Positions 12,628 through 55,326 of a DNA stretch of 64,000 bases are shown here, one piece after another. The stretch's first letter is position 1. Every line of letters starts with the position of its first letter. Below the pieces are notes generated by a model that was not told the origin of the DNA, did no database searches, and saw nothing but the letters and a program-made list of their open reading frames with translations. Position numbers and translations under genes: made by a program. Origin of the DNA: Candidatus Heimdallarchaeum aukensis (GTDB lineage Archaea > Asgardarchaeota > Heimdallarchaeia > Heimdallarchaeales > Heimdallarchaeaceae); the NCBI GenBank assembly GCA_021513695.1, contig CP084166.1, positions 2,752,001 to 2,816,000 on the forward strand, read 5' to 3'.

Positions 12628-12628
12628 A

Positions 12629-14086: not shown

Positions 14087-14095
14087 GGTGAAAAA

Positions 14096-16126: not shown

Positions 16127-16135
16127 GGTGAAAAA

Positions 16136-17605: not shown

Positions 17606-17610
17606 AAAAA

Positions 17611-19041: not shown

Positions 19042-19054
19042 AGGTGAAAAAAAG

Positions 19055-19432
19055 ATGATGTTATTTGATGCAATAATTCCAGTACTCGCATTGGGCCTAG
19101 CAGGTATGATTTTCGTAGGTATAATGATGACTTTATCAGTCTTGACTAAACCTAAAGGAGAAAAAACAAAGCTAAAGTTACAAACCTATGAAAGTGGAGA
19201 AGTTCCAGTAACTGACCGTTTAGGATTCCAATTTAATTATCAATACTTTGTTTATGCTATAGTTTTCACTGCTTTGGACGTTATGTCTATTTTCTTATAT
19301 GCGTGGGCTGTTGATTCTGCCCGTTTAGAAACAAACACCTTACTAACGATACTTGGCTTTATCACAATTTTATTCTTGGGCTTTGTTTATGTATCTGTAG
19401 CAACAAGAGAGTGGAAGAAAAATATAATGTAA
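19055..19432 (+). CDS. nuoA: Complex I subunit A
   Basis: Three TM helices, ...NYQYFVYAIVFTALDVMSIFLYAWAV... NuoA/ND3 motif; last gene of operon. Confidence 0.8.
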   Translation: MMLFDAIIPVLALGLAGMIFVGIMMTLSVLTKPKGEKTKLKLQTYESGEVPVTDRLGFQFNYQYFVYAIVFTALDVMSIFLYAWAVDSARLETNTLLTILGFITILFLGFVYVSVATREWKKNIM

Positions 19433-30810: not shown

Positions 30811-32589
30811 ATGAATATCCGAACTAAAAGTGATTTTATTATAGTAGCAATTAGCGTGCTTGTGTTCTCTACAACAAGAGTTATCTATAGCCTTTTAATA
30901 ATAAATTGGAATAATTATGAAAAAGGGAATGTTACACCTTCATTTTTATTTTGGATAGATTTTATATCCTATTTTGTGGTTTTTTTCTTGTATTTGCTCT
31001 ATGGGTGGTATATTCGAAGGAAACTTGTTAAAAAAAATCAAGATAAAGGAGATTATTCCTTACATTATATTATTAGAATATTTATTACTATTTATGCCCC
31101 CATTTTCCTCATATCTTTTGTTATTTCTTTTATAAAACAAATTGATTTACGGATATACTATACTGCATCGATATTTAATGAAACAGTTCAAATGATGTTT
31201 TTTAGTACACTAGTGGGTATTCTTCTATATAATCAAATTGAGCAATTTTTCTCTAAAGTTTTTAAATCTTCTAATTATCAAAAATATTCTTCTGAAGAGT
31301 TGACTTTTCTTGAGCAATCAATAGTCAAAACAATTAACCGTTTTTGGAGTTATGCGCTTTACACAGTTCTATTTTTTGTTTTTTTAGCAAATTTTTTGGT
31401 TTTAGTAATCTATCCAAGTATCCCTACAGAATACGATTCTAGTATCAAATTAATTATAGCCTATCCAAATTTCTCTTTTACCTTTAATAAAGAAACAGGT
31501 TTTCATCAAGAATTTTTTACTTATCTTGCACTAGATTATACAAAGTTTCTTAACTGGAAATTAATTCAGTCTTTACTCTGTATTCTTTTTATTTTAGCAA
31601 TAGCACTACTTTATTATCTTCCTTTGCATAAAAAAGAAAACGAACCTTTAAACAATGTAGAAAAACAAGAGATTGCAGAAATAAAATCTAAAACAGAAGA
31701 AGTTCAAAGCACAGAAAAAGGAATACTCAAGCAAAAAGATACAACAAAGTTAAACAACACAGGTCTACAACAAGAGATTGATTCCATCGTTTTCCTAAAC
31801 ACTGAAAATGATTATTATACTCCAATAGGTTTTATTAAGAAAAGAAACAGAAAACTTGAAAAATTGTTGTCTCAAATGAAAAAAAGTGATATTATCCCTG
31901 TGATGAATCTTGCTGCTTTGAATCTGGGTTTAGCTATGGTTTTTGTTTATTTTGTTCACTTATTTGTTCCATTAGCATATTCAAGTTACACATTATCAGA
32001 TATTCTTTATATCCAACTTTCATCGTTGTATTGGGCTGGATTATTTGAAGAAATTTCTTTCAGATTCTTGATCATGGGTGTTCCCTTATTTATTATTCAT
32101 GGTTTTCGTTACTTAATAGCAAAGATTTTACAATATTATAAATCAAAAAATGAGGTTCCAGTGAAAGAAAAAGAAGAAAACAAAAAAATAGAGAATCCTT
32201 TTCTCTATTTAACTGGTCGTTGGAAAAAGTTAAGGATTATTGATTTTGTTTTCTTGATAGCTTCTTCTTTCTTTTTTGGTTATGTTCATTATCAATTTGG
32301 AAGTTGGGCTATATGGAAAATCTTTCAGGCTGGAATTGCTGGACTTATTTTTGGATATGCTTTCTATAAATTTGGTTTGCACGCAGCTATCTTCCTTCAT
32401 ACAGTCAATGATTTTGCAATAGGTATAATGCTTGTTCCAAATTTAGGGTTAATGGTTCAAGGAGGATTTGTAGTTATTGTACTTGTTTTAATGGGAATAA
32501 TGTACTCATTCTATATTTTTTCATTATTTCTTAAAAAAACAAGCAATCTAAGCTTTAGAAAATTGAATAAACAAAAAGAGGTAAACTAA
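30811..32589 (+). CDS. CPBP-family (CAAX-protease/Abi, Rce1-like) intramembrane metalloprotease with long polytopic N-terminal extension
   Basis: C-terminal motifs EEISFRF (EExxxR), FGYVHYQ (FxxxH), HTVNDF (HxxxN/D) in TM helices. Confidence 0.6.
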   Translation: MNIRTKSDFIIVAISVLVFSTTRVIYSLLIINWNNYEKGNVTPSFLFWIDFISYFVVFFLYLLYGWYIRRKLVKKNQDKGDYSLHYIIRIFITIYAPIFLISFVISFIKQIDLRIYYTASIFNETVQMMFFSTLVGILLYNQIEQFFSKVFKSSNYQKYSSEELTFLEQSIVKTINRFWSYALYTVLFFVFLANFLVLVIYPSIPTEYDSSIKLIIAYPNFSFTFNKETGFHQEFFTYLALDYTKFLNWKLIQSLLCILFILAIALLYYLPLHKKENEPLNNVEKQEIAEIKSKTEEVQSTEKGILKQKDTTKLNNTGLQQEIDSIVFLNTENDYYTPIGFIKKRNRKLEKLLSQMKKSDIIPVMNLAALNLGLAMVFVYFVHLFVPLAYSSYTLSDILYIQLSSLYWAGLFEEISFRFLIMGVPLFIIHGFRYLIAKILQYYKSKNEVPVKEKEENKKIENPFLYLTGRWKKLRIIDFVFLIASSFFFGYVHYQFGSWAIWKIFQAGIAGLIFGYAFYKFGLHAAIFLHTVNDFAIGIMLVPNLGLMVQGGFVVIVLVLMGIMYSFYIFSLFLKKTSNLSFRKLNKQKEVN

Positions 32590-33176
32590 TGACACTTGAT
32601 AGCAGATTATACTTTAAAGTTGTTTTAGCTGGAGAAGCAGGGGTAGGAAAAACAAGTCTTCGAAGAAGTTATTTGGGAGTAGGATTCCAGACACAGCATT
32701 TAAGTACTATAGGTGCAGACTTTGCAAGTTATTCTACAAAAATAAATGAACAAAGAGTGAATTTTCAGATTTGGGATTTAGCTGGTCAAGATATCTTCGA
32801 AAGCATGCGAAATTTGTATTATAAAGGAAGTTTGGGTGCATTGATGGTTTTTGATGTAACCGATGTATCTAGTCTAGAAGCCTTAAACAATTGGATAATT
32901 GAATTAGATAAAAATTCAGGTAGAGGAATTGTACCTTTTTCCATATTAGGAAATAAAATAGATCTATTAGATGAGGAAGAACTCAATAAAATAAGAAAAA
33001 CTGTAGACTTAGTCATAAAAAAATACAATAAAAAATTTGCAAGTAAGGGTTTTTCGATTAATTATTTTGAAACTTCAGCGAAAACTGGCCATAATGTCAA
33101 AATCGCTTTTAATAATCTTGGAGAATCAATTTTTAATTATCTTGAATTCAGAAGAAAGAAGAGGGAAGAAAGTTGA
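32589..33176 (+). CDS. Rab/Ras-like small GTPase
   Basis: G1 GEAGVGKTS, G2 T in switch I, G3 WDLAGQD, G4 GNKIDL, G5 ETSAKTG; start overlaps CPBP stop (TAATG); no C-terminal CAAX. Confidence 0.8.
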   Translation: MTLDSRLYFKVVLAGEAGVGKTSLRRSYLGVGFQTQHLSTIGADFASYSTKINEQRVNFQIWDLAGQDIFESMRNLYYKGSLGALMVFDVTDVSSLEALNNWIIELDKNSGRGIVPFSILGNKIDLLDEEELNKIRKTVDLVIKKYNKKFASKGFSINYFETSAKTGHNVKIAFNNLGESIFNYLEFRRKKREES

Positions 33177-35527
33177 AAAATATTGATGTTGAACTAAGAG
33201 ATTTATTGAGAACTGGAAAAAAAGAATCTATTGATATAAATAACCTAAAAAAACTAAAAAGTATAATTCTCTTCCTAAATGACGAGGATCGTGAAATAAG
33301 ACGTACTACACAAGAGATTCTCTTATCTGCTCCTATAATCCCAGTTAGCGAAATTGTTGATCTTTATCTCTCTACTGAGAGTGAATATGTTGCTGATTTT
33401 ATAGTTGAAAATTTAAATATTTTCTTAATTGATTTGGTAGACAGATTTAGTAACAAGATAGATAGTATTATTGTTTCTGAATTAATTAAAAAAATCCCTG
33501 TAAAAGATTTATTTGCTACTTTAGTCGAAATCGCTGAAATTACTCCTATTTCAGCTAAAAAAGCTGAACTCATAATCCGAACATGTTATCCTTCTTTTTC
33601 AGAAAGCATGAATTCATTAATATCCTATGATTTTATTGAAAATTTCAAAAAAGAGATAAAAAAACTTCTTTCTATAAGACTAAAAGAGAATGATAAAAAT
33701 ATTACAACTCTTGTTCTAAAGACTGCGTGTTTCTTTCCTGAACTTCCCCCTCTGATAGAAAAAGAACTAATTAATATCATTAATCATTCAGATATAGAGG
33801 AACACATAATTTATGCAACTACTGCTTTAATAAATGTAGAAAACAAAAAGAATGCGCAGATTCTAGCTAATAGACTTAAAAATGGAAAAGATTCAGAAAA
33901 AGTAAAATTAGCTATTATTGAATCCCTTGGTAATATAGGAAATCCAAAGATTGCGCCAATAATGATCGAATTATTCGATGAAGGAGGACAGATAGCTTAC
34001 TCTACATCTAAAAGTCTGGGGTCAATGGGTGTTGAAGTCTTACCTTATTTAGTTCAAGCATTAAAAGAAGATCGTTATATACCAAATATTGTAGAGTCTA
34101 TGAAACGTATTGGTAGTGCAAGCTTCGAATATCTGATGACTAGCTTGGAAAAGGAAAGAAATATACAAATTAGAAAAAACATTGCTCATTGTTTAACACT
34201 GGTGATGCATGAACAATATGGTTATGAGGGAACAATTAAACTACTAACAAACGAATTAGCAGGAAAAAATCGAGAGCTAGTAGAAGCAGTAACTCAAGCG
34301 CTAATAAATTTAGGTACTCCTTCAATTGAGTATCTCATTGATGAATTAAATGATAAAGATCGCGAATTAAGAAAAAATGCAGTAAAAATTCTTGAACATT
34401 TTGGAGAAGGAAATATTGAAATTGCTCTTGATGGGTTACTTGAAACAGATGAAGATAGAGTAGGTACATTGAGTATTATATTATATGTTTACCATCCTGA
34501 TGAAAGATTAAGAAAATTAGGATATTCTTTTGCTGTTCATAAAGGAAATCTAAGAGCTAAAAAAACAGACAAATTACTTGAAATATTGACTGATGCCCTT
34601 AATGAAATTGACCCCTATATTCGAATTCGTTCTTGTGATATACTTGTATTTTTCAAAAGTAAGGCCATTCCTCATTTAACCAAACTTCTCTCTGACCCAA
34701 ACATTCTAGTTAAAAGAAAAGCAGCAGAGGCACTACGTACAATAAAAAGCAAAAGAGCATTAATAGCATTGATGAATGCTGCTACTGATAAAGACCCAAT
34801 AGTTTCTGAAATTTCTACAAGAGCTTTGGGAGAATTAGGAGATCCAGGTGTTGTAGATATCATTCTTGGGAATTTAAAGAGAAATAGTCAAGCAATATAT
34901 GAAGCTTCAGTTTATGCTCTTTCTCAACTAGGAACACCTATATTACACAAGATAACAAAAGAATTAAGCAGTTCAAATAAAAAAGTTGTAGATGGTATAG
35001 TCGATGCAATATCGAAAATAGGGACAGTTGGACTAGAAATTCTGATAAAAAAATATTTAGAAGAGAACGGAAGAAGAGTTGCACAAATTGAACGAATAAT
35101 TGGAAAAATGGGCGAAACAGCAATACCTGCAATATTAGAAATATATGAAAAGACTAGTGATTCTCAAAATAAAGAAAAGTTATTGAGACTAAGGGCAAAG
35201 ATTAAAGATACTTCTGTAACTAAAGAAATAGTTGAAAAGCTACAAAAACCAGCTAGTAAAAAAACAGCAATTGAACTTATAAATTTGATTGGAATTGAAT
35301 GTGTGAATAAAATAGTTGATGAATTACTCAAATTAGAACAAAACAAAGTAAAAAGGATTTTCACAAAGAATATTAAAATTGAACCTAAAATATTGGTTTC
35401 GATTATTAAGGAGTTGAAATTAAGAGAACAACAGCAACTTGCACTACATCTTATTAATCAAAACCAAAGAACGTTAAAGAAATTTGTAAGCGAGAATCCA
35501 GAATTTGAAAGTTTGTTTGAAGAATAA
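33173..35527 (+). CDS. HEAT/PBS-lyase-type repeat protein
   Basis: Repeated about 30-aa helical repeats with ...ALG.IG.P.A...L...L.D motif (for example AIIESLGNIGNPKIAPIMIELFDEG; ALRTIKSKRALIALMNAATDKDPIVSEISTRALGELGDP); start overlaps GTPase stop (TTGA). Confidence 0.6.
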   Translation: MKNIDVELRDLLRTGKKESIDINNLKKLKSIILFLNDEDREIRRTTQEILLSAPIIPVSEIVDLYLSTESEYVADFIVENLNIFLIDLVDRFSNKIDSIIVSELIKKIPVKDLFATLVEIAEITPISAKKAELIIRTCYPSFSESMNSLISYDFIENFKKEIKKLLSIRLKENDKNITTLVLKTACFFPELPPLIEKELINIINHSDIEEHIIYATTALINVENKKNAQILANRLKNGKDSEKVKLAIIESLGNIGNPKIAPIMIELFDEGGQIAYSTSKSLGSMGVEVLPYLVQALKEDRYIPNIVESMKRIGSASFEYLMTSLEKERNIQIRKNIAHCLTLVMHEQYGYEGTIKLLTNELAGKNRELVEAVTQALINLGTPSIEYLIDELNDKDRELRKNAVKILEHFGEGNIEIALDGLLETDEDRVGTLSIILYVYHPDERLRKLGYSFAVHKGNLRAKKTDKLLEILTDALNEIDPYIRIRSCDILVFFKSKAIPHLTKLLSDPNILVKRKAAEALRTIKSKRALIALMNAATDKDPIVSEISTRALGELGDPGVVDIILGNLKRNSQAIYEASVYALSQLGTPILHKITKELSSSNKKVVDGIVDAISKIGTVGLEILIKKYLEENGRRVAQIERIIGKMGETAIPAILEIYEKTSDSQNKEKLLRLRAKIKDTSVTKEIVEKLQKPASKKTAIELINLIGIECVNKIVDELLKLEQNKVKRIFTKNIKIEPKILVSIIKELKLREQQQLALHLINQNQRTLKKFVSENPEFESLFEE

Positions 35528-37817: not shown

Positions 37818-39240
37818 AAGGTCTAATCATTAGCAGATGAATTTAAATCTTACCTCTTTTTTTGAGTATAAATTACTCGCTTTTTTTTCCTGTTATCTCA
37901 AATGTTTTGATTTCACTATCATTTTCAGGAAGTTTAAGCAGTTCTAAAAGTGATAAGATCATCTTGCCAAATAATTTTTCCATAAATTCATTTAAAGGAA
38001 TCTCTTTTCCATTAATCTTTACTTCTATTTCATCTAACATGAAAAAAAAAACACTGTTGAGTTTATTAATTTTATCTTAATCTCAAATGAATAATTATAA
38101 CTTTTTTAGTTAAAGAATTCACTTAACCAAGAGTTCACTATACTTTTTTGCTAAATTAAATGAAAAAAATTTAAAGAAAAGAAGCAATAAAATTATATTT
38201 AAATATTATGAGCGTAGGTAAGAATATAGGTGTAAATTTTCATGGAAGTAGGTGCGTTAATTTTTATGCTACTAATTGCACTGGCAGTGTACATAACCAT
38301 AAGGGTTTCCTCAGCGAATAAGAAGAAGAGAAAACAAATTTATCGTAAACGATATCAACCTTATCAACCTTACAGACCTTATCAGCCATCACACCTAGAT
38401 TCTTCTCAAAGAACAAGTTATCAGAGTGAAGAAACCACCCCAACAACAAGAACTTCTTCTATTTATCAACCTCAAACTCAACCCTCTTATACTCCACAAA
38501 GAACTCCAATAGCAACAAATAATGCCGATGATTATTATCGTGCAGGAATGTACGATAGAGCAAAAGAAGAATATCTTAAAACAGGGAGGATATTTGGTGC
38601 AGCTAAATCTGTAGCTTCTAAAGGAAAAGAATATGTAAAAGAAGCTTTGGAAATAATTAGACAATATGCTCCAGAAAGAGAAGAAGAAATGGTAAGAAAT
38701 CTTTCAAGATACTTTTTTGATAGTGGAGATGTAGAATTATCAGCTCAAGTATTATATGATTATAATCTTATTGAAGAAGCTAAAGCAGTATTAGCTACCA
38801 TAGGAAAGAGTATAGAAGATATAGTTGAACCTAAATCTGTTGAGATTAGCACATTCAGTAGCACTGAACCCTTTCTATCTAGTACTGAAAGTGAAACAGA
38901 ACCTATCATTTCCAGTTTTGCTAGCGATACTGAACCAATAAATGATGCAAGAGAAGAGCTGAAAGTATTGGCAAGTGAAGAAGAAGCAGAACCCATTGAG
39001 CCTTTTACAAGTCAAGTTGAAAAACAGAAAAAAATAGAACCACAACAACTAAAGATAGCTACAGTAGATTTAGATGAAAGATGTACAGTTTGTTTAGGAG
39101 AAGTAAAAGCAGGAGAAAGTTTTGTTAGATGTCCCCATTGTGGAAAACCTTCTCATTATTCTCATTTAGTAGAATGGCTAAAAGTAAAAACCCAATGTCC
39201 TAACTGTAGAAACAAATTATCATTAAATATGTTTAAAACA
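37098..39240. repeat. Tandem direct duplication, copy 1 (2143 bp)
   Basis: Sequence 37098-39240 recurs at 39241-41381 with only two single-base differences. Confidence 0.9.
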
Positions 39241-39264
39241 CGCACCAATAGCTCCCCCTGCTAG
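38242..39264 (+). CDS. Membrane-anchored, Pro/Tyr/Gln-rich protein with C-terminal RING/PHD-like (C4H2C2 cross-brace-type) zinc finger
   Basis: N-terminal TM (LIFMLLIALAVYITI), low-complexity YQPYQPYRPYQP...TPTT region, C-terminus CTVCLGEVKAGESFVRCPHCGKPSHYSHLVEWLKVKTQCPNCRN. The last 8 codons (RTNSSPC) are created by the duplication junction; native end is ...MFKT*. Confidence 0.55.
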   Translation: MEVGALIFMLLIALAVYITIRVSSANKKKRKQIYRKRYQPYQPYRPYQPSHLDSSQRTSYQSEETTPTTRTSSIYQPQTQPSYTPQRTPIATNNADDYYRAGMYDRAKEEYLKTGRIFGAAKSVASKGKEYVKEALEIIRQYAPEREEEMVRNLSRYFFDSGDVELSAQVLYDYNLIEEAKAVLATIGKSIEDIVEPKSVEISTFSSTEPFLSSTESETEPIISSFASDTEPINDAREELKVLASEEEAEPIEPFTSQVEKQKKIEPQQLKIATVDLDERCTVCLGEVKAGESFVRCPHCGKPSHYSHLVEWLKVKTQCPNCRNKLSLNMFKTRTNSSPC

Positions 39265-39960: not shown

Positions 39961-41381
39961 AGGTCTAATCATTAGCAGATGAATTTAAATCTTACCTCTT
40001 TTTTTGAGTATAAATTACTCGCTTTTTTTTCCTGTTATCTCAAATGTTTTGATTTCACTATCATTTTCAGGAAGTTTAAGCAGTTCTAAAAGTGATAAGA
40101 TCATCTTGCCAAATAATTTTTCCATAAATTCATTTAAAGGAATCTCTTTTCCATTAATCTTTACTTCTATTTCATCTAACATGAAAAAAAAAACACTGTT
40201 GAGTTTATTAATTTTATCTTAATCTCAAATGAATAATTATAACTTTTTTAGTTAAAGAATTCACTTAACCAAGAGTTCACTATACTTTTTTGCTAAATTA
40301 AATGAAAAAAATTTAAAGAAAAGAAGCAATAAAATTATATTTAAATATTATGAGCGTAGGTAAGAATATAGGTGTAAATTTTCATGGAAGTAGGTGCGTT
40401 AATTTTTATGCTACTAATTGCACTGGCAGTGTACATAACCATAAGGGTTTCCTCAGCGAATAAGAAGAAGAGAAAACAAATTTATCGTAAACGATATCAA
40501 CCTTATCAACCTTACAGACCTTATCAGCCATCACACCTAGATTCTTCTCAAAGAACAAGTTATCAGAGTGAAGAAACCACCCCAACAACAAGAACTTCTT
40601 CTATTTATCAACCTCAAACTCAACCCTCTTATACTCCACAAAGAACTCCAATAGCAACAAATAATGCCGATGATTATTATCGTGCAGGAATGTACGATAG
40701 AGCAAAAGAAGAATATCTTAAAACAGGGAGGATATTTGGTGCAGCTAAATCTGTAGCTTCTAAAGGAAAAGAATATGTAAAAGAAGCTTTGGAAATAATT
40801 AGACAATATGCTCCAGAAAGGAAGAAGAAATGGTAAGAAATCTTTCAAGATACTTTTTTGATAGTGGAGATGTAGAATTATCAGCTCAAGTATTATATGA
40901 TTATAATCTTATTGAAGAAGCTAAAGCAGTATTAGCTACCATAGGAAAGAGTATAGAAGATATAGTTGAACCTAAATCTGTTGAGATTAGCACATTCAGT
41001 AGCACTGAACCCTTTCTATCTAGTACTGAAAGTGAAACAGAACCTATCATTTCCAGTTTTGCTAGCGATACTGAACCAATAAATGATGCAAGAGAAGAGC
41101 TGAAAGTATTGGCAAGTGAAGAAGAAGCAGAACCCATTGAGCCTTTTACAAGTCAAGTTGAAAAACAGAAAAAAATAGAACCACAACAACTAAAGATAGC
41201 TACAGTAGATTTAGATGAAAGATGTACAGTTTGTTTAGGAGAAGTAAAAGCAGGAGAAAGTTTTGTTAGATGTCCCCATTGTGGAAAACCTTCTCATTAT
41301 TCTCATTTAGTAGAATGGCTAAAAGTAAAAACCCAATGTCCTAACTGTAGAAACAAATTATCATTAAATATGTTTAAAACA
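39241..41381. repeat. Tandem direct duplication, copy 2 (2141 bp, two 1-nt deletions)
   Basis: Identical to copy 1 except loss of one A near 39823 and one A near 40823. Confidence 0.9.
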
Positions 41382-41384
41382 TAA
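40384..41384 (+). pseudogene. RING/PHD-like membrane protein gene (copy 2) disrupted by a -1 frameshift
   Basis: CCAGAAAGGAAGAAG in copy 2 vs CCAGAAAGAGAAGAAG in copy 1; ORF split into 40384..40836 and 40830..41384; keeps native C-terminus ...NMFKT*. Confidence 0.6.
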
Positions 41385-42329: not shown

Positions 42330-43880
42330 CTAAGTTAGGATATTTTCTCAATAACATGGTCTACTTTTTCCTAAATTCCGATTTAGATTAAAAATCGGAA
42401 GAAGTAGTAAGTTTAGTCGGTGGAAAAAAAGAAAGAGAAAGAACAGCGTAAAAGCTGGTCTAACTAACTTAACTTGCTAACTTATTTTCCAACGGACGGG
42501 GTGAACCACTGCAGCCCAGACTATCCCGTAGTTAGACATAACAGAGAATAACGTGGGGAATACTTTGCGACCGATATTACCTGCAGAGTTGATATCAGCA
42601 TTAATTTTTAATCCTCTGGTACTGATGAACAGTCCACGGTGAGTTCTTTTGCCAGCATAATGGGGGTGAAAAGCTATCTCTTCATTATCTAAGAAACTGC
42701 AGACAGAGGTGTAGGACTCTTCGGTAGGAATAACTTTTATCCCTTTTTCTTCTGCTTTGTAAGTGATTTTGTCAATGAGGGATTTAAAGGGGATAAAAAC
42801 AAAGGTTTGATTATTTTTCTTTCCCATATTCACTTTCTGTTTCCATCTGGGGTTGTAACCTATAACTATCGTATCAATGTTTTTTTCTAAACAGTAGTCT
42901 ATTATCTTCCTACTTGCTTTATGGAAATAGTCAGCTATTTTACACATTCGTTCTAACTGGAGAGTAAGCATTTTTCTTCCCCAGGTGGTTAATCCTTGCT
43001 TGTCATAGATTGACTGTAATTTTGCCCTACGTTTATTAAACCACTGATTAACAGCTTTAATGGGTCTACCATTTATCAGAAAACCTTTTTCACCAGGAAT
43101 AGTGGTTAACCCGCCTACAAGGTTATTCACTCCCAGATCAAGAGCTAGAACTCTTTCTGCATGTCGTTTTTTTCGTTCTTCTATCTCTTTCTCGTAAACT
43201 ATCTCTAATTTAAATTTCGTTCCCATAGGTATAAGACGGGCAAACTTCACTTTCGTTGAAGGACACAGTCTTGTAACTATCTTTAGTCCTACACGTTTAG
43301 GGAAAGAGATAAAAAATTTTTCTTTTTCTTGCTCTTTTTCTTCTTTAATTTTCACTTGAGAGTTAGTAAAATAGATTATAGCAAGTCCATCTTTCTTCTT
43401 CTATTTTGGAGGACGGGGTTTACCATTAAACTTTTCTGGTTCTTTTTTGCATTCTTCTAAAGACCTAAAATACCCTTTCCACGCTAAACATAGAAACTTT
43501 ATCGTCTGTTGTGCCGTATGACCAGGTAGTGCTGTGTAGGTCGGGTGATACCTTAAAATATTCATCAGTTCGAACTCTCTCGTGAAATATTTACTTTTTC
43601 TTAACTGATACTTAATAATGTAATTTGCTTGATTATACAAGTTTTTTACCTGGTGTGCCAACTGCTTTAGAGTGATCGATTCTTTCACCCATATTTCCTC
43701 AGTTCGGTACACCTTTTTCCTCATTTTTTCTTTCATTTATTTTTACTTTTTTCCCTATTTAAACTCCTCATCTTCCCTCCTCTCCTCTCTTCTCCTCTCC
43801 TTTATTCTTCTTTTTTCCCCCTCTTCTACAACTTCGTAATTTCGGAAAAAGTAAACCATCAGAACTTCTTTTACGCATTT
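42330..43880 (-). mobile_element. IS200/IS605-like element remnant (tnpB only, no tnpA); boundaries approximate
   Basis: Solo tnpB; GC-rich 3' end region (42480-42560) where omega-RNA scaffolds normally lie; CT-rich tract 43751-43835 at the 5' side. Confidence 0.35.
42477..43736 (-). pseudogene. tnpB: IS200/IS605-family tnpB (OrfB, RuvC-like RNA-guided nuclease) interrupted by one in-frame TAG
   Basis: Track ORFs 43401..43736 and 42477..43355 are in the same frame, separated only by TAG at 43401-43403. Downstream part has LALDLGVNNLV (RuvC-I), zinc-finger Cys and INADINSAGNIGRK motifs. Confidence 0.7.
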
Positions 43881-45243: not shown

Positions 45244-46029
45244 ATGGCAGAAGAAAATGAAGGAACATCTGTAGGAGAAGCTATAAAGATTACAGAATTA
45301 GAAAATGAAAAGAAAAAACTGGAAGAAAAAGTCCAAGCTTTGACTGAGGAGGTTAATAAGTTAAAAGAAGAGAATTCGTCTTTAGTCGAGAAAAATAATG
45401 AACTAACAGAAAAACTGAGTAGTTTAGAACAAACCTCTGGAACAGCTGAACAACAAGAACAAGAAGTGAATGAATTAAAGGAAAAGCTTTCTTCTACTCA
45501 ACAAGAAAAAGAAAATTTAAGCCAAGAGTTACAAAAACTAAAAGATGAGATGTTGCGAAAAGATGAAGAATTGAATGAAAAAAATAGAGAACTAAATAGC
45601 ATGAAAGAACAACTAGAAGAAAAGCAAAAAATGATTGATCAACTAAAAGAAGAAGTTTCTACAATTGAAAGAAGTAAATCTGAATTAGAATCACAATTGA
45701 AATCAATTAATGACGAAAAAATGGAAATAGAAGCTAAATACAACGAGCTGCTAAAAGAAACTTCTAAACTAGATGAACTAAAGACGTCGCTTCAAGATAA
45801 AGAAGAGGCATTAAGAAGATTTCAAATAATTGCAGAAACTGATCCATCTTATGCTTGGTTAACTACATTAGAGCAGTACAAAGTTATAGAACTAAAAAGA
45901 CTAGCAATGTCTGCTGGTGCTTCAACTCATGCCATACTTCAATATGTTAAAAAATTAGAAGCTGCAGGACTCGTTGAACTAGAATTTCATGGTAGAGAAG
46001 ACAGCAATCCTGTTGTAAAGTTGAAATAA
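45244..46029 (+). CDS. Coiled-coil protein with C-terminal winged-helix-like domain
   Basis: About 190 aa of heptad-rich E/K/L sequence followed by ...LKRLAMSAGASTHAILQYVKKLEAAGLVELEF. Confidence 0.4.
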   Translation: MAEENEGTSVGEAIKITELENEKKKLEEKVQALTEEVNKLKEENSSLVEKNNELTEKLSSLEQTSGTAEQQEQEVNELKEKLSSTQQEKENLSQELQKLKDEMLRKDEELNEKNRELNSMKEQLEEKQKMIDQLKEEVSTIERSKSELESQLKSINDEKMEIEAKYNELLKETSKLDELKTSLQDKEEALRRFQIIAETDPSYAWLTTLEQYKVIELKRLAMSAGASTHAILQYVKKLEAAGLVELEFHGREDSNPVVKLK

Positions 46030-46955: not shown

Positions 46956-47642
46956 ATGAGTATTTATATAGTTGAAAAAACAGGGGAACTTTCTACATGT
47001 CATGATAAAGATCGTGCATTAAAATCAGAAAATGTATTAATTGTTGTTTCACACATGGATAAAAAAGTTTACACATGGGTGGGGTCAAGAGCTTCTCCCC
47101 AATCAAAATTCGCTTGTGCAAGAGAAACAGCACGAATGAGGATGGAATTGGGTTATCGTGCAGTGAATCTAGAAGAAGCTGATACAACAGAATCATTCTT
47201 GAGAGCTATAGATGAAGTTCTTAATGGAAGTGATAGTTCAGGAACAAGTTTTAGACCAAGGCCTGCTGCTTATTCTTCTCAAATAAAAGAAAAGAAAAAA
47301 GAGAAAATTCGAGAAAAGCAGAAAGAAGTTATTAAGAAAGAAGAACCTAAAGATATAAAAGCTGCTGTTACACCCTCTGTAAAACTCGATGCTTCTTCTC
47401 CTAAAGTTCTTGATATCAATTACGTAGTAAAGCAAACTTCAACTCTTCCACCTATCAATGGGATGATTAGAGATTATATAATAATAGGCGATAAACTATA
47501 TATTGCTCCTGATGAAGATACTTCTGAGGTAGCAATGATGGATTCTCTTCCAGATGGGGGATTTGTGGCAGAGGATTATTTACCAAGATTATATATAGAA
47601 AATGGACGAGTAATAGCTGTAGAACTATGGAGAGAGCAGTAA
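46956..47642 (+). CDS. Gelsolin/cofilin-fold (gelsolin-like) domain protein with C-terminal extension
   Basis: SIYIVEKTGELST...VLIVVSHMDKKVYTWVGSRASPQSKFACARETARMRMELGYRAVNLEEADTTESFL parallels the gelsolin repeat motif (..vw.ie...l.pv........lf.gd.yi.l........iy.WiG..ss.de...aa..a..ld..lg.......E.qg.Es..Fl). Confidence 0.5.
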   Translation: MSIYIVEKTGELSTCHDKDRALKSENVLIVVSHMDKKVYTWVGSRASPQSKFACARETARMRMELGYRAVNLEEADTTESFLRAIDEVLNGSDSSGTSFRPRPAAYSSQIKEKKKEKIREKQKEVIKKEEPKDIKAAVTPSVKLDASSPKVLDINYVVKQTSTLPPINGMIRDYIIIGDKLYIAPDEDTSEVAMMDSLPDGGFVAEDYLPRLYIENGRVIAVELWREQ

Positions 47643-47755: not shown

Positions 47756-48298
47756 TTACTTATTTTCTCCAAGTTTCTTCATTACTAACTTGACTATTGT
47801 GACATAAACATCATTTACTCCTGCTCCTAATTTAGCAGAAGTCTCAAGAACTTGGTAACCTTTACTTTCCCATTCTTTTTTTGCTTGTTCATAAGGTACA
47901 GCTCTTTGTTCTTCTAGATCTGTTTTATTTCCAACAATGATGATTGGTATGTCAGGTACTTTATTTTCTATCTCTGATATCCAATAAGAAATATTTTCAT
48001 ATGATTCTTTTCTAGTAATGTCATAAACCACCACAGCACCATGAGCTCCAGTGTAATACCTTTTCCTTAAGGAAGCTAGACGTTCTTGTCCCACTGTATC
48101 AAATAATACCATTTTTATTTTTGTATCCTCATCAATGTCAACTTCCTTGCTGTAGAAATCCACTCCTAATGTAGGAAGATAATTAACCGAAAATTTGTTC
48201 TTTGTATATCTCACCGCAATACTTGTTTTTCCGACACTATAGTCACCAACATTAATTATCTTAACAATAAAGGTGACATTTTTGTTTGAACCTAACAT
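47756..48298 (-). CDS. Rab/Ras-like small GTPase
   Basis: G1 GDYSVGKTS, G3 FDTVGQE, G4 GNKTDL, G5 ETSAKLG; no CAAX. Confidence 0.8.
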   Translation of the reverse strand: MLGSNKNVTFIVKIINVGDYSVGKTSIAVRYTKNKFSVNYLPTLGVDFYSKEVDIDEDTKIKMVLFDTVGQERLASLRKRYYTGAHGAVVVYDITRKESYENISYWISEIENKVPDIPIIIVGNKTDLEEQRAVPYEQAKKEWESKGYQVLETSAKLGAGVNDVYVTIVKLVMKKLGENK

Positions 48299-48482: not shown

Positions 48483-49373
48483 TTGTTATGTGAGGATAAA
48501 AGCATGTCTTCAAAAGTAATAGAATCAATAGCTTATAGCTATGTAGGAAGATTAATTGAACCCTATCTAACAGAATTTGAAGGTTTAAGGACCACACTAA
48601 AAAAAGCCGGAATAGAGCAAAGTGTTAGGATGTATTTAAGCATTAGACTATTCTGGTCCATAGTTTTATCAATAGTTTCACTTTTTGTTCTAATTGCAGT
48701 AAAAATACTAGTACCAAGTTTTTCAGTCATACTGGTTGTCATATTACCTGTGCTAATTTTGTTGACAATGTTTGTAATAACATGGGTATACCCAAGTTAT
48801 CTGATAGGTGAAAGAAAAAGAAAACTAGAAGCAGCTTTACCCACTGCAGCAAGCTATATGACTGCCATGGCTTCTGCAGGAGTTACACCAGATAAAATTT
48901 TCCTTGCTTTATCTAAAGAAGAAAGCATTGGTGAAGCTATTGTTAAAGATGCTAAAAAAATCTCTCGTGATATTCAAGTTTTTGGTTATGATATTGTTCA
49001 TGCTTTAAGCGAAGCATCATCACGTTCTCCTTCTCCTAAGTATTCAAGTTATTTAGAGGGGATTGTTGCGACTTTTACCTCTGGAGGAGAACTTCAGCGA
49101 TTTTTAGAAGTTTCTACTGAAAACTTGATGAGAGATAAAGTTCAAACTGAAAAGAATTTTATTGAAGCGTTAGGTTTAACTGCAGAGTTGTACATGGTTG
49201 TAGGAGTTGTAACTCCTATTTTCTTTATCGTTATAATTGCAATGATGGCCATGTTGGGTGGTAGTGCAAATACTGGGGCTAATGCTCTTCTAGCAATTAC
49301 AGTTTACATAGTCATACCTGTTGGAATGCTGGTAATTATTCTTTTAGTGGACATGCAACAACCGGAGGATTAA
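48483..49373 (+). CDS. TadB/TadC (FlaJ/GspF-like, T2SSF domain) pilus assembly membrane protein 1
   Basis: Single T2SSF-like domain ...LPTAASYMTAMASAGVTPDKIFLALSKEES... flanked by TM helices. Confidence 0.55.
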   Translation: MLCEDKSMSSKVIESIAYSYVGRLIEPYLTEFEGLRTTLKKAGIEQSVRMYLSIRLFWSIVLSIVSLFVLIAVKILVPSFSVILVVILPVLILLTMFVITWVYPSYLIGERKRKLEAALPTAASYMTAMASAGVTPDKIFLALSKEESIGEAIVKDAKKISRDIQVFGYDIVHALSEASSRSPSPKYSSYLEGIVATFTSGGELQRFLEVSTENLMRDKVQTEKNFIEALGLTAELYMVVGVVTPIFFIVIIAMMAMLGGSANTGANALLAITVYIVIPVGMLVIILLVDMQQPED

Positions 49374-49383
49374 GGTGAGTTAA

Positions 49384-50286
49384 ATGGCAATTAAAGATGA
49401 AGTTGAGATAAAAACGAAAGAGTTTCAGATTAGTGTTGATATAATCTATTGGGTTATAGCAGTTTTTGCGGGATTGGTTATAGTTGTATTAGGTGTTTTA
49501 GATTATATTTCTTCTACTGATTTGATAACCATATTAGATATAAATGACTTTATTATATTAGCCATAATTATATCAATGGGTATTCCAACCTTTTTAATAG
49601 TTTACAGAGAAGAACGTAGACAAGCTCGTATTGATGAGAATTTACCATATCTCCTCCGTGAAATCTCAAATGCACAACGAACAGGTATGAGTCTCCCTCG
49701 AGCAATAAAAGAAGCAGCGAAGAGACACTATGGTCCTTTAACTCCCGAATTACGTAAAATGTCAAGTAAAATTTCTTGGGGTATTCCTTTTAGTAAAGCT
49801 ATGTCTGATTTTCAAAGTGCAATAAATACACAGATGGCTCAGAGAGCTACCATTCTAATTTTAGAGGCTGAACGTTCTGGAGGAAATCTAGAGGATATTT
49901 TTGAATCAACAGAGAAACATGTTCAACAGTTACTTGATCTCAAAAAAGAACGAGAAGGAGCAATGCGACCCTACTTGATGATTTGTTATGCTGCATACAT
50001 CATTTTTGTCTTAGTGGTCTTCATATTATTCCAAACATTCTTTTATCCTTTTGGTACATTGGATGTTTCTAGTGAGATGTTTAGTTTTAGTATAGATTTA
50101 GATACACTTTCTGTTCTGTTCCTTCATATGCTAGCTGTCCAAGGCTTCTTCACTGGTCTTGTTGCTGGAAAAATGGCAAAAACAAAAGTTAAAGCAGGAT
50201 TAATGCATTCTGTGATACTAATGTTTATTGGTTGGTTTGCATTTAAAGTTCTCATTCAAAATCAACTTATCACACTAAATTTGTAA
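49384..50286 (+). CDS. TadB/TadC (FlaJ/GspF-like) pilus assembly membrane protein 2
   Basis: Second T2SSF-like domain ...LPYLLREISNAQRTGMSLPRAIKEAAKRH...; GGAGGA RBS. Confidence 0.55.
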   Translation: MAIKDEVEIKTKEFQISVDIIYWVIAVFAGLVIVVLGVLDYISSTDLITILDINDFIILAIIISMGIPTFLIVYREERRQARIDENLPYLLREISNAQRTGMSLPRAIKEAAKRHYGPLTPELRKMSSKISWGIPFSKAMSDFQSAINTQMAQRATILILEAERSGGNLEDIFESTEKHVQQLLDLKKEREGAMRPYLMICYAAYIIFVLVVFILFQTFFYPFGTLDVSSEMFSFSIDLDTLSVLFLHMLAVQGFFTGLVAGKMAKTKVKAGLMHSVILMFIGWFAFKVLIQNQLITLNL

Positions 50287-50295: not shown

Positions 50296-50727
50296 ATGGT
50301 AAAAATCGAAACTGAAATAAAAAATATCAAAGCAGATATTGAGGAACTAAAACGAACTTTAAACCAAATGAACTTTAATTTGGTTAGAATAATGGGCACA
50401 ATAGAAAAAGGAATTGCCAGTGTTTCTACTACAGAAGATGGAGAAAAAGTGGTAACTTCTGGAGTTTCTGTTGATTTGGGACCAATTGAAGATAAAATAG
50501 AAAAACTGGAAAAAGAAATGGTTACCAAAAAAGAGCTGAGTAAGCTCGAAGCACGAGTCTCTGAAATAGTTTCTGAAAAAATTAAAAGAGCTGAAGAAAC
50601 ACAAGATAGAGCTCAAAATCTGCTTGAAAAAGGAATGGAATTGGTGGAATTACAGTCAACTCTGGCAGAAATAAAAACACTATTGGAAGAAAGAATTCTC
50701 GGAGATTTGGAAGAAGAAACAGAGTAA
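50296..50727 (+). CDS. Small coiled-coil protein
   Basis: 143 aa, E/K-rich heptad pattern; within pilus locus. Confidence 0.35.
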   Translation: MVKIETEIKNIKADIEELKRTLNQMNFNLVRIMGTIEKGIASVSTTEDGEKVVTSGVSVDLGPIEDKIEKLEKEMVTKKELSKLEARVSEIVSEKIKRAEETQDRAQNLLEKGMELVELQSTLAEIKTLLEERILGDLEEETE

Positions 50728-50736
50728 ATCAAATAG

Positions 50737-51888
50737 GTGATTAATCCCGTGATTCTAAAAAAACTAAGAAGAATGAGAAAAGGACAAGTTAGGGGGATAG
50801 ATTTTGCTTTAGGCATGCTTATTTTTATTATTGCTTTTAGTCAAGTAATAATAGTTCTTACTCATCTTCTTGTACCTTCAATAATGCAAATGGAGAATTA
50901 TTCAGAATACCAAGAGTTGGATAAATTATATGGGTTAATATATTATTCAAAAGGAAATCCTTCTAATTGGGCAACAATAGGAACTTCTTCGTTAACAGAT
51001 TTTTCTTTAGGATTAAGTGGTGATGATGGACAATTATCTTTTTCTAAAATAAATAGGTTAACATCAGATATTGCTGATTATTGGAAAATTGATTATCAAT
51101 TTGTAAAAACATCTTATGGACTTTTGAAAGATTTCGCTATCTCTGTAGATTCAGTTATAAAGATCCAACTAGATAGTTTTTCTGCAGGTTTTGGCTCTCT
51201 CACTGTAAAAGGAAAAGTTTTGGAGGATACAGTATCGATTGAAAATGTTGCAATCACTACTTTTGCTTTGGATAAAGAAAATAACTTGTTTATTAATACT
51301 ACAACAACAAAGAAAAATACAAATGAAGCTACTTTTATCTCAACCCTTTCAGTATCTACTTCAAATTATTATACTATTGTAATTTTTGCTAATATTGATG
51401 AAATTTATGAAACATATTATGTGTTTAGAATCTACAAACCTAATGATAGTTTTGAATATGAGAAAGTAGATTTTAACTTTCGACCATTAGTTTTAGAGAA
51501 CAAAGAAAAACATTCATCAGCAATCGATGTTCGCTTTTCTAGTCCAGCTATAACAGAAGAAGCAGTAGCTACTGTTCTATTTTCAAAAAGAGATGTAGGA
51601 AAAAGTTTCTATAATCAGACCTTATCTCAAGAATCTTCTTTAGAAGAAGGAAATTTTTATTTAGGAACAAACATTCCTATCCCCACTCAAGGATTGGCAG
51701 TAGTTGTTGTACAAGAAAATGATGGGTTAAATTACAGAGCAGGGTACATGGGTATCCCCATGTTTTTGACAGAGACTGCTTCAAGCATTTTTGGAAATGA
51801 AGAAATTCTTTCAGGTGAATACATTTATTCATTTGATCTGCTTTATGTCAGAAACAGATTAGTTAAATGTCAAATTTGGGTGAATTAG
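50737..51888 (+). CDS. Pilin-like protein with class III (type IV prepilin) signal peptide
   Basis: N-terminus KKLRRMRKGQVRGIDFALGMLIFIIAF (basic stretch, K-G, hydrophobic helix). Confidence 0.5.
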   Translation: MINPVILKKLRRMRKGQVRGIDFALGMLIFIIAFSQVIIVLTHLLVPSIMQMENYSEYQELDKLYGLIYYSKGNPSNWATIGTSSLTDFSLGLSGDDGQLSFSKINRLTSDIADYWKIDYQFVKTSYGLLKDFAISVDSVIKIQLDSFSAGFGSLTVKGKVLEDTVSIENVAITTFALDKENNLFINTTTTKKNTNEATFISTLSVSTSNYYTIVIFANIDEIYETYYVFRIYKPNDSFEYEKVDFNFRPLVLENKEKHSSAIDVRFSSPAITEEAVATVLFSKRDVGKSFYNQTLSQESSLEEGNFYLGTNIPIPTQGLAVVVVQENDGLNYRAGYMGIPMFLTETASSIFGNEEILSGEYIYSFDLLYVRNRLVKCQIWVN

Positions 51889-52356
51889 ATGAGAAAATTG
51901 TTAAAATCAAAAAAAGCACAACTGTTTGTTATTGAAGCTTTCATTGCTGTTTCTGTAATGTTAATAATGGTCATCGCAATTTACGAGGTACAATTGGCTA
52001 CTGTCCCTCCAAAAGAGCAAGGATATACTGAACTAACCTATAACATACTAGAGTCTCTAGATCAGAGTGGAATACTTGAAGAGTATGTAATTGCTCTTAA
52101 GTCTGAAAATCCTGATACAATAGGAAATGTTCAAGAAAAAATAAGTTTGGCAGTTTACTCATCAATTCCCGAAAATGCTGATTTTTATTTCTACTGCAAG
52201 AATTTGACAACAAATGAAATAGTTACTTCGAGTATAATTAATATTCTAGATACCGATCAAGTAAATGTTTTCACTTCAGAATATTTAATTACAGAAGTTA
52301 ATGGAGAGTTTGATCCATATAGTTTCTATTTAGCTGTTTGGATAGTAGGTGTCTAA
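51889..52356 (+). CDS. Pilin-like protein with class III signal peptide
   Basis: MRKLLKSKKAQLFVIEAFIAVSVMLIMVIAIY. Confidence 0.5.
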   Translation: MRKLLKSKKAQLFVIEAFIAVSVMLIMVIAIYEVQLATVPPKEQGYTELTYNILESLDQSGILEEYVIALKSENPDTIGNVQEKISLAVYSSIPENADFYFYCKNLTTNEIVTSSIINILDTDQVNVFTSEYLITEVNGEFDPYSFYLAVWIVGV

Positions 52357-53038
52357 TATGAATAAAAGAAAATTCTTTCAAAATAAAAAAGGAGAAGTAT
52401 TTATTTTACTTGCTCTAGTTATTCTACTCTATCTAATGTTATTGTCTACAACAATTTATAATGTTACCCAGATTCCTTATGTGGATCCTGCTCCCGAACA
52501 AGACCAAACAAACAATTATATCGAAAATGCTATTTCTGCACTATATGATCTCGTAGATGTTGCTTTAAATGAATATTCACATGGAATTGAAGAAACAACT
52601 GTTCGAGCTAACTTTGTTGAAAATGTAAAAACAATCGAAAATTATCTCGATGAACACAATCTTTTATCTACTTTTACAGTGAATGAAACAAGTTTTAGTA
52701 TTACAAACTCTTCAAAGAGTGAGAATCCTGTTTACATATCGTTTGAATGTTCCATTTCTATCTCGATTATTTCTATTAACCAGAGATTTGAAGCAAATTT
52801 AGAAATTAAAGTGAGTTATTACTTGGAAATATCTGAAATATTAGGTACTGAAAACTACATTTATTGCTACTCAATAAAACAAGGAATAGAGTTTCCATTA
52901 AGTGATTGTCAGGTAACTATCTCTCCAACCACAACAGTAACAAATATCGGGGATGGTAGTTACATGGCTGATTTACAAACAGGACAGTTAATAAAAGTGG
53001 TCTTTAACAATAACATTCTTTTGTGGAAGGAGATTTAA
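52349..53038 (+). CDS. Pilin-like protein with class III signal peptide
   Basis: MNKRKFFQNKKGEVFILLALVILLYLML. Confidence 0.5.
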   Translation: MSNMNKRKFFQNKKGEVFILLALVILLYLMLLSTTIYNVTQIPYVDPAPEQDQTNNYIENAISALYDLVDVALNEYSHGIEETTVRANFVENVKTIENYLDEHNLLSTFTVNETSFSITNSSKSENPVYISFECSISISIISINQRFEANLEIKVSYYLEISEILGTENYIYCYSIKQGIEFPLSDCQVTISPTTTVTNIGDGSYMADLQTGQLIKVVFNNNILLWKEI

Positions 53039-53796: not shown

Positions 53797-55326
53797 TCAT
53801 CTCAAAGCCTTCTTCGCTTTTTCCAATGTTCTATCAGGGTCAGAATTATACTCTTGAATAATAGAAGCAACATCTTCAAAGTAACGGATTCTCTTTTTTA
53901 CCATCCAGCGTAGAACTGTTTTTCTCCTTTCAAGTTCATCATGGATATCTTGCTCTGTTATTCCAGTATTTTCCATTATTTTTTCTAAGACATAACTTCT
54001 ACCAAAGTAAATAAATGAATCTTCTCTTGGATTCCACTGAAATACTTTGTTTGTGAGAATTTCTTCAGTAACTGGATCTAACCCTATTAATTCTGTAATA
54101 GTTAGTGTTCTTCTTGCAAATTTTCCTTGATGGCGTACTTTTCTAACTACATGGATAATATCTAAACTCTTCATCATGCTTCTTGGAATATTCATTGGTT
54201 TACTCTCAAGCCTGTGGATAACACCTTCAACTGAGTCACCATGAATGGTACCTAGCCCTCTATGCCCAGTACTCATAGCTTGGAACATTGCATAAGCTTC
54301 CTCACCTCTAATTTCTCCTACAATAATATAGTCTGGTCTTTGTCTCATAGCTGCTCGAAGTAACTCGTACATAGAAATTTGTCCTCGTCTATATCCTGTT
54401 TCTGTTGCTTCTCCAAAACCAGAGCGAACAACGCTTGGAATCCAGTTCTCATGTGCTAAATTTAGTTCTGCTGTATCTTCAATTGTAACGATTTTCATAT
54501 CGGGTTTAATCATCATACTTAGGGTATTAAGTAAAGTAGTCTTTCCTGCAGCCGTACCTCCTGCCACGAGAATAGATACATTGTGCTCCATTATGAACCA
54601 ATAATAAGCTGCAATCTCGATGTCAATAGTATTATAAAGAATTAAATCTGTAATTGTGAAGGGATCAGCCTTAAATTTACGAATAGTAAAGGTTGAACCT
54701 CTTTGAGTTACTTCTCTTCCATAAGTTAGTTGCACTCTGCTACCATCTTCTAAACTTGCATCCAATAAAGGATTAGCAATACTTACATGTCTTCCTGCTC
54801 TCTGAGCTAATTTAATAATAAAGCTGTTCAATTCGTCCTCTGTATCAAAAGATACATTAGTTGCAATAGATTCATATTTTCTGTGCCAAACATAAATAGG
54901 AATACCTACACCATCACATGATATATCTTCAATATTAGGGTCAAGCATAAGTGGTTGTATCTTCCCAAAGCCAATGAGATCTCTTGTCAAATAATACATT
55001 ATTTTCTCGAACTGATTTTCATTAAGTTTTATACGATATCGTTTAATGACATCAACTATTTTCTTTTTTAGATATTCTTCTGCTTTAGTAAAATCTTTGA
55101 GAACACTAAAATCAACATCTAATTCTTCAATGAGAATCTCTAAAATCTTGTTGTAAATAGCTTTTTCCTTGCTGTCTAGTGGGATTTCCACAACCATATA
55201 TTGGGTTCTTTGTGTAACAGGATTCGTTTGAATTAATACATAACTAAAGGGAGGACTAACAGGATAGGTTTCTTCTAAAAGAGGAACTGAACTGTCCATT
55301 GACATTGTACCGAAATTTTCATCCAT
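53797..55326 (-). CDS. Type IV pilus/archaellum-type secretion ATPase (FlaI/TadA/VirB11 family)
   Basis: Walker A VAGGTAAGKTTLLNTL, Asp box, Walker B, His box; N-terminal domain typical of FlaI-like ATPases. Confidence 0.8.
   Translation of the reverse strand: MDENFGTMSMDSSVPLLEETYPVSPPFSYVLIQTNPVTQRTQYMVVEIPLDSKEKAIYNKILEILIEELDVDFSVLKDFTKAEEYLKKKIVDVIKRYRIKLNENQFEKIMYYLTRDLIGFGKIQPLMLDPNIEDISCDGVGIPIYVWHRKYESIATNVSFDTEDELNSFIIKLAQRAGRHVSIANPLLDASLEDGSRVQLTYGREVTQRGSTFTIRKFKADPFTITDLILYNTIDIEIAAYYWFIMEHNVSILVAGGTAAGKTTLLNTLSMMIKPDMKIVTIEDTAELNLAHENWIPSVVRSGFGEATETGYRRGQISMYELLRAAMRQRPDYIIVGEIRGEEAYAMFQAMSTGHRGLGTIHGDSVEGVIHRLESKPMNIPRSMMKSLDIIHVVRKVRHQGKFARRTLTITELIGLDPVTEEILTNKVFQWNPREDSFIYFGRSYVLEKIMENTGITEQDIHDELERRKTVLRWMVKKRIRYFEDVASIIQEYNSDPDRTLEKAKKALR

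Follow-up and report, generated by a model that had tools for sequence, protein, structure and literature searches.

The 64,000-nucleotide stretch of the Candidatus Heimdallarchaeum aukensis genome analysed here (the window) carries, at positions 46956..47642 of the plus strand, a gene whose product is a gelsolin-fold domain followed by a floppy basic linker and a second small, previously undescribed domain, called here the X domain. Genes of this layout form a pan-Asgard family, for which we coined the name gelsolin-linker-X, and they recurrently lie beside genes for Ras- or Rab-like small GTPases or for Roadblock/LC7 proteins. We put at about 0.5 the probability that the protein is a calcium-independent actin regulator in which linker and X domain supply a second contact, and whose activity or location is under the control of a Rab-like GTPase dedicated to it, with a Roadblock partner. 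The open reading frame (ORF) is complete, running as initially annotated from the ATG at 46956 to the end of the stop codon at 47642 and encoding 228 amino acids (aa). Its product is 100% identical to UJG40623.1 (locus tag K9W45_12410; UniProt A0A9Y1BKA6) of the same organism, the source contig of which spans 3,081,793 bp. This protein is listed as hypothetical by NCBI and carries the automatic UniProt name "Gelsolin-like domain-containing protein". In the family alignment, 60+ homologues share the start (MS[IL]Y[IV]I...), and inspection of the sequence revealed neither a signal peptide nor a membrane segment.

A gelsolin-fold domain joined to a second conserved domain

Residues 1-92 (46956..47231, plus strand) were modelled by AlphaFold2 from 32 family sequences with a predicted local distance difference test score (pLDDT) of about 90. 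Four strands (residues 3-6, 12-15, 27-32 and 37-42) are followed by a long helix (48-65), a further strand (68-73) and a second helix (79-90), and the mixed beta-sheet core lies between the long and the shorter helix as in the gelsolin fold. The initial annotation had assigned the N-terminal 90 or so residues to a gelsolin repeat of an Asgard archaeon and had made the assignment depend on fold prediction giving a gelsolin/cofilin-like sandwich; this sandwich was obtained, which supports a gelsolin-homology domain in this Heimdallarchaeum genome. The motif VYTWVGSRASPQSKFACARETARMRMELG on which the annotation drew is present, with VYTWV forming strand 37-42 and PQSKFACARETARMRMEL the long helix of residues 48-65 (47097..47150, plus strand). 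This helix, defined by the AlphaFold2 model, the family alignment and the register of HMMER alignments to gelsolin, is the best-conserved stretch of the family, with K51, F52, A53, C54, A55, R56, E57, R62, M63 and E64 invariant. In the same HMMER register it matches the actin-contacting helix of gelsolin G1 and of ProGel.

The search with Pfam PF00626 that had been proposed as a check gave 13.9 bits against a gathering cutoff of 21 (E 0.051, residues 22-64), so on this count the window protein falls short. Of 32 family members, 29 gave weak matches to PF00626, none of them convincing (best E 0.0031). A distant Odin homologue (L016:6001-6858) passes the cutoff with 21.9 bits, and several other family members have a precomputed PF00626 assignment. 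Among solved chains, phmmer matched the window protein to the Lokiarchaeota 2DGel 7WHG (E 2.8e-6) and the Thor ProGel 7C2F_B (E 0.015), while the family profile matched ProGel with an E of 1.2e-6, aligning query residues 4-82 with residues 7-86 of the 94-residue chain. The nearest relatives by both sequence and structure (ProGel, 2DGel, gelsolin and villin) are all actin-bound gelsolins.

Type II and type I calcium-binding residues define only the calcium-regulated members among gelsolin domains, not every member. In HMMER alignments to gelsolin, read with the usual gelsolin numbering (both here and for Ile103 below), N26 and S50 align with the Asp/Glu ligands of the type II site and R62 with the Asp of the type I site, and neither set of calcium ligands is present. 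N26 is invariant and S50 nearly invariant in the family alignment. Because these three residues occupy the Asp/Glu positions, the domain looks calcium-independent, like ProGel and 1DGelX. A further signature of gelsolin domains is the DWG motif, in which an Asp is hydrogen-bonded to an invariant Trp that is followed by x-Gly. Here W41 and G43 are invariant across the family, whereas the position of the Asp, read by eye from the alignment to ProGel, holds Ser32, which is invariant in Heimdallarchaeaceae; the position is apparently Asp in the few Odin- and Loki-type relatives inspected.

The C-terminal half had been described as Lys/Glu-rich and unstructured-looking, a description that holds for residues 93-149 or thereabouts and fails for residues 150-228. 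The former constitute a Lys-rich linker (47232..47402, plus strand), judged disordered from a pLDDT below 50, the alignment and its composition. Across the family the linker measures 36-89 aa and carries a net charge of 0 to +20 (median +11.5), and the family alignment contains no conserved linker sequence and no conserved WH2-like motif. The latter form the X domain (47403..47639, plus strand), conserved and compactly modelled, so that a gelsolin domain with an unstructured tail does not describe the whole protein. Modelled alone, the X domain reached a pLDDT of 84 and a predicted template modelling score of 0.75, with one helix (154-162) followed by two beta-hairpins (strands 170-177, 180-183, 209-215 and 218-227). 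Seventeen columns are invariant among 17 diverse sequences; within the pan-Asgard family G201 and R211 never vary, and at least 90% of sequences keep F203, Y208 and E223.

No relative of the X domain was found when its profile was compared with PDB sequences (best E 0.27), and the domain alone matched no Pfam and no NCBIfam family. Two candidate identities, a cryptic gelsolin repeat and a Roadblock-like domain, were rejected at an hhalign probability of 0.1% each. A sequence match to Vps26 (E 0.27) and whole-protein matches to OTU1_UBXL, DUF3499 and DUF7904 were weak and are treated as noise or unresolved.

Three types of Asgard gelsolin have been distinguished by Akil et al. 2020 (PMC7444086): ProGel, which is the domain alone, 1DGelX, which is the domain with a domain X, and 2DGel. 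Thor ProGel (7C2F) consists of a sole domain of about 94 aa and nothing else, whereas the window protein, at 228 aa, continues into a basic linker of 57 aa and a conserved C-terminal domain of 79 aa and is not a ProGel because of these extra modules. Nor is it a 2DGel (7C2G, 7WHF, 7WHG), which has two gelsolin domains and a WH2-like joining motif, because it has no second gelsolin domain. Its single gelsolin domain, long linker and non-gelsolin C-terminal region fit the operational description of 1DGelX/GelX, and it can be likened, by published description, to Thor 1DGelX (KXH72031.1) and to B35_GelX of L. ossiferum (UYP44381.1); in a 2025 preprint (10.1101/2025.11.30.690169) GelX of L. ossiferum is drawn with a gelsolin domain that an extensive linker connects to an X domain. 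Severing of actin by Thor 1DGelX needs no calcium (Akil et al.), with which the missing calcium residues of the window protein are consistent. Two differences should be kept in view. The literature describes domain X of 1DGelX/GelX as disordered or as a predicted coiled coil, but the X domain here is modelled as a compact helix with four strands; and Thor 1DGelX co-migrates with actin and is therefore probably larger than the window protein. The window protein is about 23% identical to ProGel and N-domain identity across the family is 23-34%, values compatible with the published 35% between 1DGelX and ProGel but not decisive. By accession, neither KXH72031.1 nor UYP44381.1 appears among the named cluster members.

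A pan-Asgard family beside GTPase and Roadblock genes

With the X-domain profile, an exhaustive HMMER search over 1.84 billion representatives retrieved 64 representative clusters. Apart from fragments and one spurious hit (P0076, an 802-aa repeat protein with an E of 2.5e-15 that broader models do not match), these are proteins of 200-380 aa with the same gelsolin-linker-X layout, the linker being of low complexity. Nearly all sufficiently long clusters also have an N-terminal gelsolin-like domain, and of 180 proteins retrieved all 150 that are long enough contain both domains; a search with the N-domain profile alone added only six fragments. The family consensus reads ...IWKG..A.VR.KFISAR... 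in the N-domain and LPEG.FFAE.Y.PR...AIEFLK in the X domain. Named proteins and genome matches place members in Heimdallarchaeaceae, Hodarchaeales, Thor-labelled metagenome-assembled genomes, Lokiarchaeota, Helarchaeota, Odinarchaeia, Ranarchaeia and Baldrarchaeota. Homologues of the window protein within Heimdallarchaeaceae are 41-67% identical to it. Further related loci were found with a four-sequence alignment, and the window protein aligns over its full length with Odin-, Baldr- and Hod-type genes of 243-269 aa at 25-27% identity; the database was small, and E ranged from 1e-14 to 1e-22. Makarova et al. 2019 described a gelsolin-like cluster of Asgard archaea, Lokiarch_14920, as near-universal and extremely divergent; it may be the gelsolin-linker-X family.

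Two variants of the layout were seen. In one branch (P0168-P0171) the X domain ends near residue 273 of about 390, and precomputed Pfam assignments to SAP, HeH, Rho_N and Ish1 accompany that to Gelsolin, which suggests an additional C-terminal nucleic-acid-binding tail. Three short ORFs (P0121, 86 aa; P0125, 113 aa; P0091, 118 aa) encode essentially the X domain only; they may represent the X domain as an independent protein, or else genes whose calls were truncated on short contigs.

In the window, the gelsolin-linker-X gene (gelsolin-X in what follows) stands on the plus strand between a GT2 glycosyltransferase gene and a Rab-like GTPase gene, both on the minus strand, beyond which lies a surface-filament locus on the plus strand. 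The Ras-like GTPase neighbour reported initially is indeed there (47756..48298, minus strand), convergent with the gelsolin-like gene. It encodes 180 aa without a C-terminal Cys, scores 173 bits with Pfam Ras and has Rab14, Rab35 and Rab1 as its best PDB matches (E about 1e-37). A Rab-like GTPase gene adjoins gelsolin-X in six of seven Heimdallarchaeaceae loci (window, L001, L002, L005, L007 and L009); the orthologues are 60-71% identical and stand in three different arrangements with gelsolin-X.

Loci from other lineages provide stronger evidence of linkage than those of Heimdallarchaeaceae. All three Hod-type loci (L025, L026 and L027) have a Ras-like GTPase gene of 173-185 aa directly downstream on the same strand, separated by 23-26 bp in two loci and by 233-269 bp in the other, with otherwise unrelated flanks, and in L026 a gene for an MP1/LAMTOR3-like Roadblock-fold protein lies immediately upstream of gelsolin-X. 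In the Odin- and Baldr-type and related loci (L011-L020) a Roadblock/LC7 gene of 121-131 aa follows gelsolin-X directly on the same strand in 10 of 10 cases, the gap being 2-3 bp in seven and about 50 bp in three (2-55 bp overall). This assignment is supported by 27.1 bits with Pfam in Odin and by a profile match to the PDB chain 9JUE_D (E 2.4e-8). In six of these ten loci (L011-L016) a Rab-like GTPase with a long C-terminal extension is encoded two genes upstream of gelsolin-X; the extension, about 370-430 aa at the Odin/Hod-labelled gelsolin-X genes, is an M20 peptidase domain in L012 (2433-4271) and has no Pfam match in the Odin locus L016 (2671-4344). The Hel locus L028 has a 284-aa Roadblock-domain protein about 600 bp downstream on the other strand. 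Altogether, a GTPase or Roadblock gene is adjacent or within two genes in 20 of 23 loci and neither is nearby in two of the 23, a tally that includes some loci without full flanks. The hint of a GTPase link in the initial annotation is thus strengthened, since members from other Asgard lineages adjoin a Ras/Rab-like GTPase or Roadblock/LC7 gene although their other neighbours differ.

The linked GTPases of Heimdall, Hod-type and Odin-type loci cluster together in a tree, apart from four other GTPases of the same loci, and the Heimdall and Hod-type ones have the switch-I motif YLPTLGVD in common. We found no description of gelsolin-Roadblock or gelsolin-GTPase linkage in the searchable literature. 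In MK-D1, GTPase genes generally lie outside operons with Roadblock genes, and pairing Asgard GTPases with their partners by genome layout is difficult (Tran et al. 2024). In L. ossiferum an Arf GTPase co-immunoprecipitated with Lokiactin and five gelsolin-homology proteins (10.1101/2025.11.30.690169), which is circumstantial support for cross-talk between GTPases and actin.

The surface-filament locus and other genes of the window

The pilus locus noted initially is archaellum- or type IV pilus-like and begins at 48483. Two plus-strand genes with T2SSF domains (48483..50286) resemble a split ArlJ/FlaJ/UpsF membrane platform; they correspond to the N- and C-terminal halves of ArlJ/FlaJ models, and the split is kept in all related loci. 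Four small ORFs of the operon follow (50296..53038, plus strand), one for a coiled-coil protein and three for proteins with hydrophobic, class III signal-like N-termini, and all four are conserved in L001, L002, L005, L007 and L009. A FlaI/ArlI-like secretion ATPase gene with a T2SSE domain lies on the minus strand at 53797..55326 (Pfam T2SSE 136 bits; NCBIfam FlaI 430 bits against a cutoff of 550), and the locus also holds an HSP20 gene and further pilin-like ORFs. In L009 (825-3944) the FlaI-like T2SSE ATPase, 1039 aa in total, is split by an intein with a LAGLIDADG homing-endonuclease domain.

Several other genes of the window deserve mention. Upstream of gelsolin-X, a 261-aa protein (45244-46029, plus strand) combines a long Glu/Lys-rich coiled coil with a C-terminal MarR-like winged helix, and it stays near gelsolin-X in several Heimdallarchaeaceae loci at 52-58% identity (L003 4453-5331; L005 10893-11801). 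Just upstream of RadA, a 292-aa IS605 OrfB/TnpB-like ORF (42477-43355, minus strand; OrfB_IS605 and Cas12f1-like TNB) would be either a mobile-element remnant or an active TnpB. Two plus-strand ORFs (38242-39264 and 40830-41384) have C-terminal RING-finger (zf-RING_2) domains, which are eukaryote-like ubiquitin-ligase signatures, and in L003 a RING protein is encoded near the gelsolin-X gene. A second Ras-family GTPase of 195 aa (32589-33176, within 30811-35527, plus strand) is flanked, with overlapping or abutting ends, by a 592-aa protein that matches no Pfam family and a HEAT-repeat protein of 784 aa; the trio recurs in L003 (1-3122) and looks like another conserved GTPase module. The remaining features are an unusual signalling/enzyme fusion of 992 aa with a response-regulator receiver-like region and PPDK_N (27087-30065, minus strand), a long co-directional operon for complex I/Mrp-type subunits (8183-19432, plus strand; Oxidored_q3, 49-kDa subunit and two Proton_antipo_M) and a 220-aa ORF (376-1038, minus strand) matching Pfam GPP34 with 67.5 bits, the GOLPH3 family being better known from the eukaryotic Golgi.

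Proposed function and its alternatives

We propose that the gelsolin-linker-X protein is a two-module cytoskeletal regulator. Residues 1-92 would act as a calcium-independent, ProGel-type gelsolin-homology domain, and the flexible, positively charged linker with the alpha+beta domain of residues 150-228 would provide a second binding site. Members of the gelsolin superfamily bind actin in the cleft that separates subdomains 1 and 3. Such a protein might cap, sever or sequester Asgard actin, and a dedicated Rab-like GTPase with its Roadblock/LC7 partner would set its activity or location, the X domain and/or the linker serving as the docking element. More specifically, and only tentatively, the family may be the actin-side effector of a dedicated Rab-like GTPase/Roadblock switch, with the X domain as a so far unrecognised GTPase- or Roadblock-docking fold; in Heimdallarchaeaceae this module might also connect to a surface filament of the type IV pilus-like kind. 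The recurrent neighbours are of the same component types as those of MglA/MglB and of the eukaryotic Rag-Ragulator, each a GTPase with a Roadblock/LC7 or MP1-like protein. The window GTPase is Rab-like by its best matches rather than MglA-like, and the bacterial system has no counterpart of gelsolin-X. Asgard versions have been described (PMC10933270).

A number of observations weigh against this proposal. On the actin side, the Pfam Gelsolin score of the window protein is below the cutoff, R56 stands at the position of gelsolin Ile103, a key hydrophobic actin contact of G1, and the closest relative, ProGel, binds rabbit actin weakly (Kd 337 µM; PMC7444086). No actin or profilin gene was detected in the window among the Pfam-scanned ORFs of at least 100 aa (most, not all). 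On the side of the switch, gelsolin-X and the GTPase gene are always on opposite strands in Heimdallarchaeaceae and therefore are not co-transcribed, and in L003/L004 gelsolin-X is found between the genes for dUTPase and RadA, at a distance of 4 kb from the paired GTPase and pilus genes. Synteny in this family extends over the whole region (RadA, GT2, dUTPase, PRAI and pilus genes), so the adjacency there is partly inherited and the evidence from it only moderate. Asgard genomes are rich in genes for small GTPases and Roadblock proteins, the 64-kb window itself yielded no Roadblock gene, neither a GTPase nor a Roadblock gene is near gelsolin-X in the Loki-type locus L029 or in L030, and the GTPase tree is a neighbour-joining sketch of 14 sequences. 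What the analysis shows is the ORF, the family and its breadth, the two folded domains with the gelsolin fold of the first, the lack of a calcium-site signature and the recurrent gene linkage to GTPase and Roadblock genes; that the protein binds actin, what the X domain does, and any physical contact with the GTPase or its Roadblock partner or dependence on the GTPase are inferred.

The same fold evidence would serve equally well for an ordinary actin regulator of the ProGel/1DGelX type that has no functional connection with the GTPase. Its gelsolin domain would bind actin, its linker and X domain would attach to the filament side, a role that Akil et al. suggested for the extension of 1DGelX, and its GTPase and Roadblock neighbours would reflect inherited synteny in GTPase-rich genomes. 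A strongly basic linker suits acidic actin filaments, and both the broad synteny among Heimdallarchaeaceae loci and the two loci without such neighbours (L029 and L030) would be expected from it. We nevertheless regard this explanation as doubtful: the pairing persists where all other flanks differ (L025, L026 and L027; L020 versus L016), the spacing of 2-3 bp or 23-26 bp is operon-like, and every partner, whether a Ras-like GTPase or a Roadblock-fold protein, belongs to the same kind of switch. Alternatively, the protein might be a regulator or effector of the GTPase that does not bind actin, its gelsolin-fold and/or X domain contacting the Rab-like GTPase much as Sec23 touches Sar1 through its gelsolin-like domain, which contributes to GTPase-activating (GAP) activity. 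An arginine finger could then be among the conserved arginines, which are R56 and R62 in Heimdallarchaeaceae and, within the X domain, R172 and R211. Sec23 is a five-domain COPII coat protein, every other domain of which is missing from the window protein, and the closest relatives of the latter in sequence and structure are all gelsolins bound to actin (ProGel, 2DGel, gelsolin and villin), which makes this role improbable.

The initial annotation had also read the neighbourhood as hinting at a link between cytoskeleton and surface structure, and this did not extend beyond one family: pilus genes adjoin gelsolin-X only in the syntenic region of Heimdallarchaeaceae. A pilus accessory factor, for example one that connects the base of the filament with the cell interior while the GTPase switches polarity or assembly, could be argued from the FlaJ-like operon, which the GTPase and/or gelsolin-X gene abuts in all examined Heimdallarchaeaceae loci and which in L005 has the GTPase gene co-oriented directly upstream. 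There is also a precedent in Myxococcus, where MglA/MglB couples a Ras-like GTPase to type IV pili and to MreB, the actin-like cytoskeleton. We hold this function to be highly improbable, as loci of the Hod, Odin, Baldr, Hel and Loki types have no pilus genes in the vicinity of the family, gelsolin-X has moved away from the pilus operon in L003 while the GTPase stayed, and the protein has no export signal or membrane anchor of the kinds looked for above.

One more gelsolin-like gene is routine in itself, because the actin-regulating role of Asgard gelsolins is established and in part characterised, and the window gene already bears its label in UniProt. What appears to be undescribed in the searchable literature is a divergent pan-Asgard branch with an obligate second folded domain of no known relatives, and its recurrent coupling, often at operon spacing, to both components of a small-GTPase switch. 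If this coupling is functional, it would give a function to one of the Rab-like GTPases of Asgard archaea, many of which are orphans, and would offer a concrete protein pair or triple for asking whether GTPase-regulated actin remodelling predates eukaryogenesis. Should the protein prove to be the effector that we propose, the control of actin dynamics by small GTPases, a eukaryotic hallmark, would already be wired in Asgard archaea; the recurrent gene pairing is itself a hint that such control may be older than the eukaryotes.

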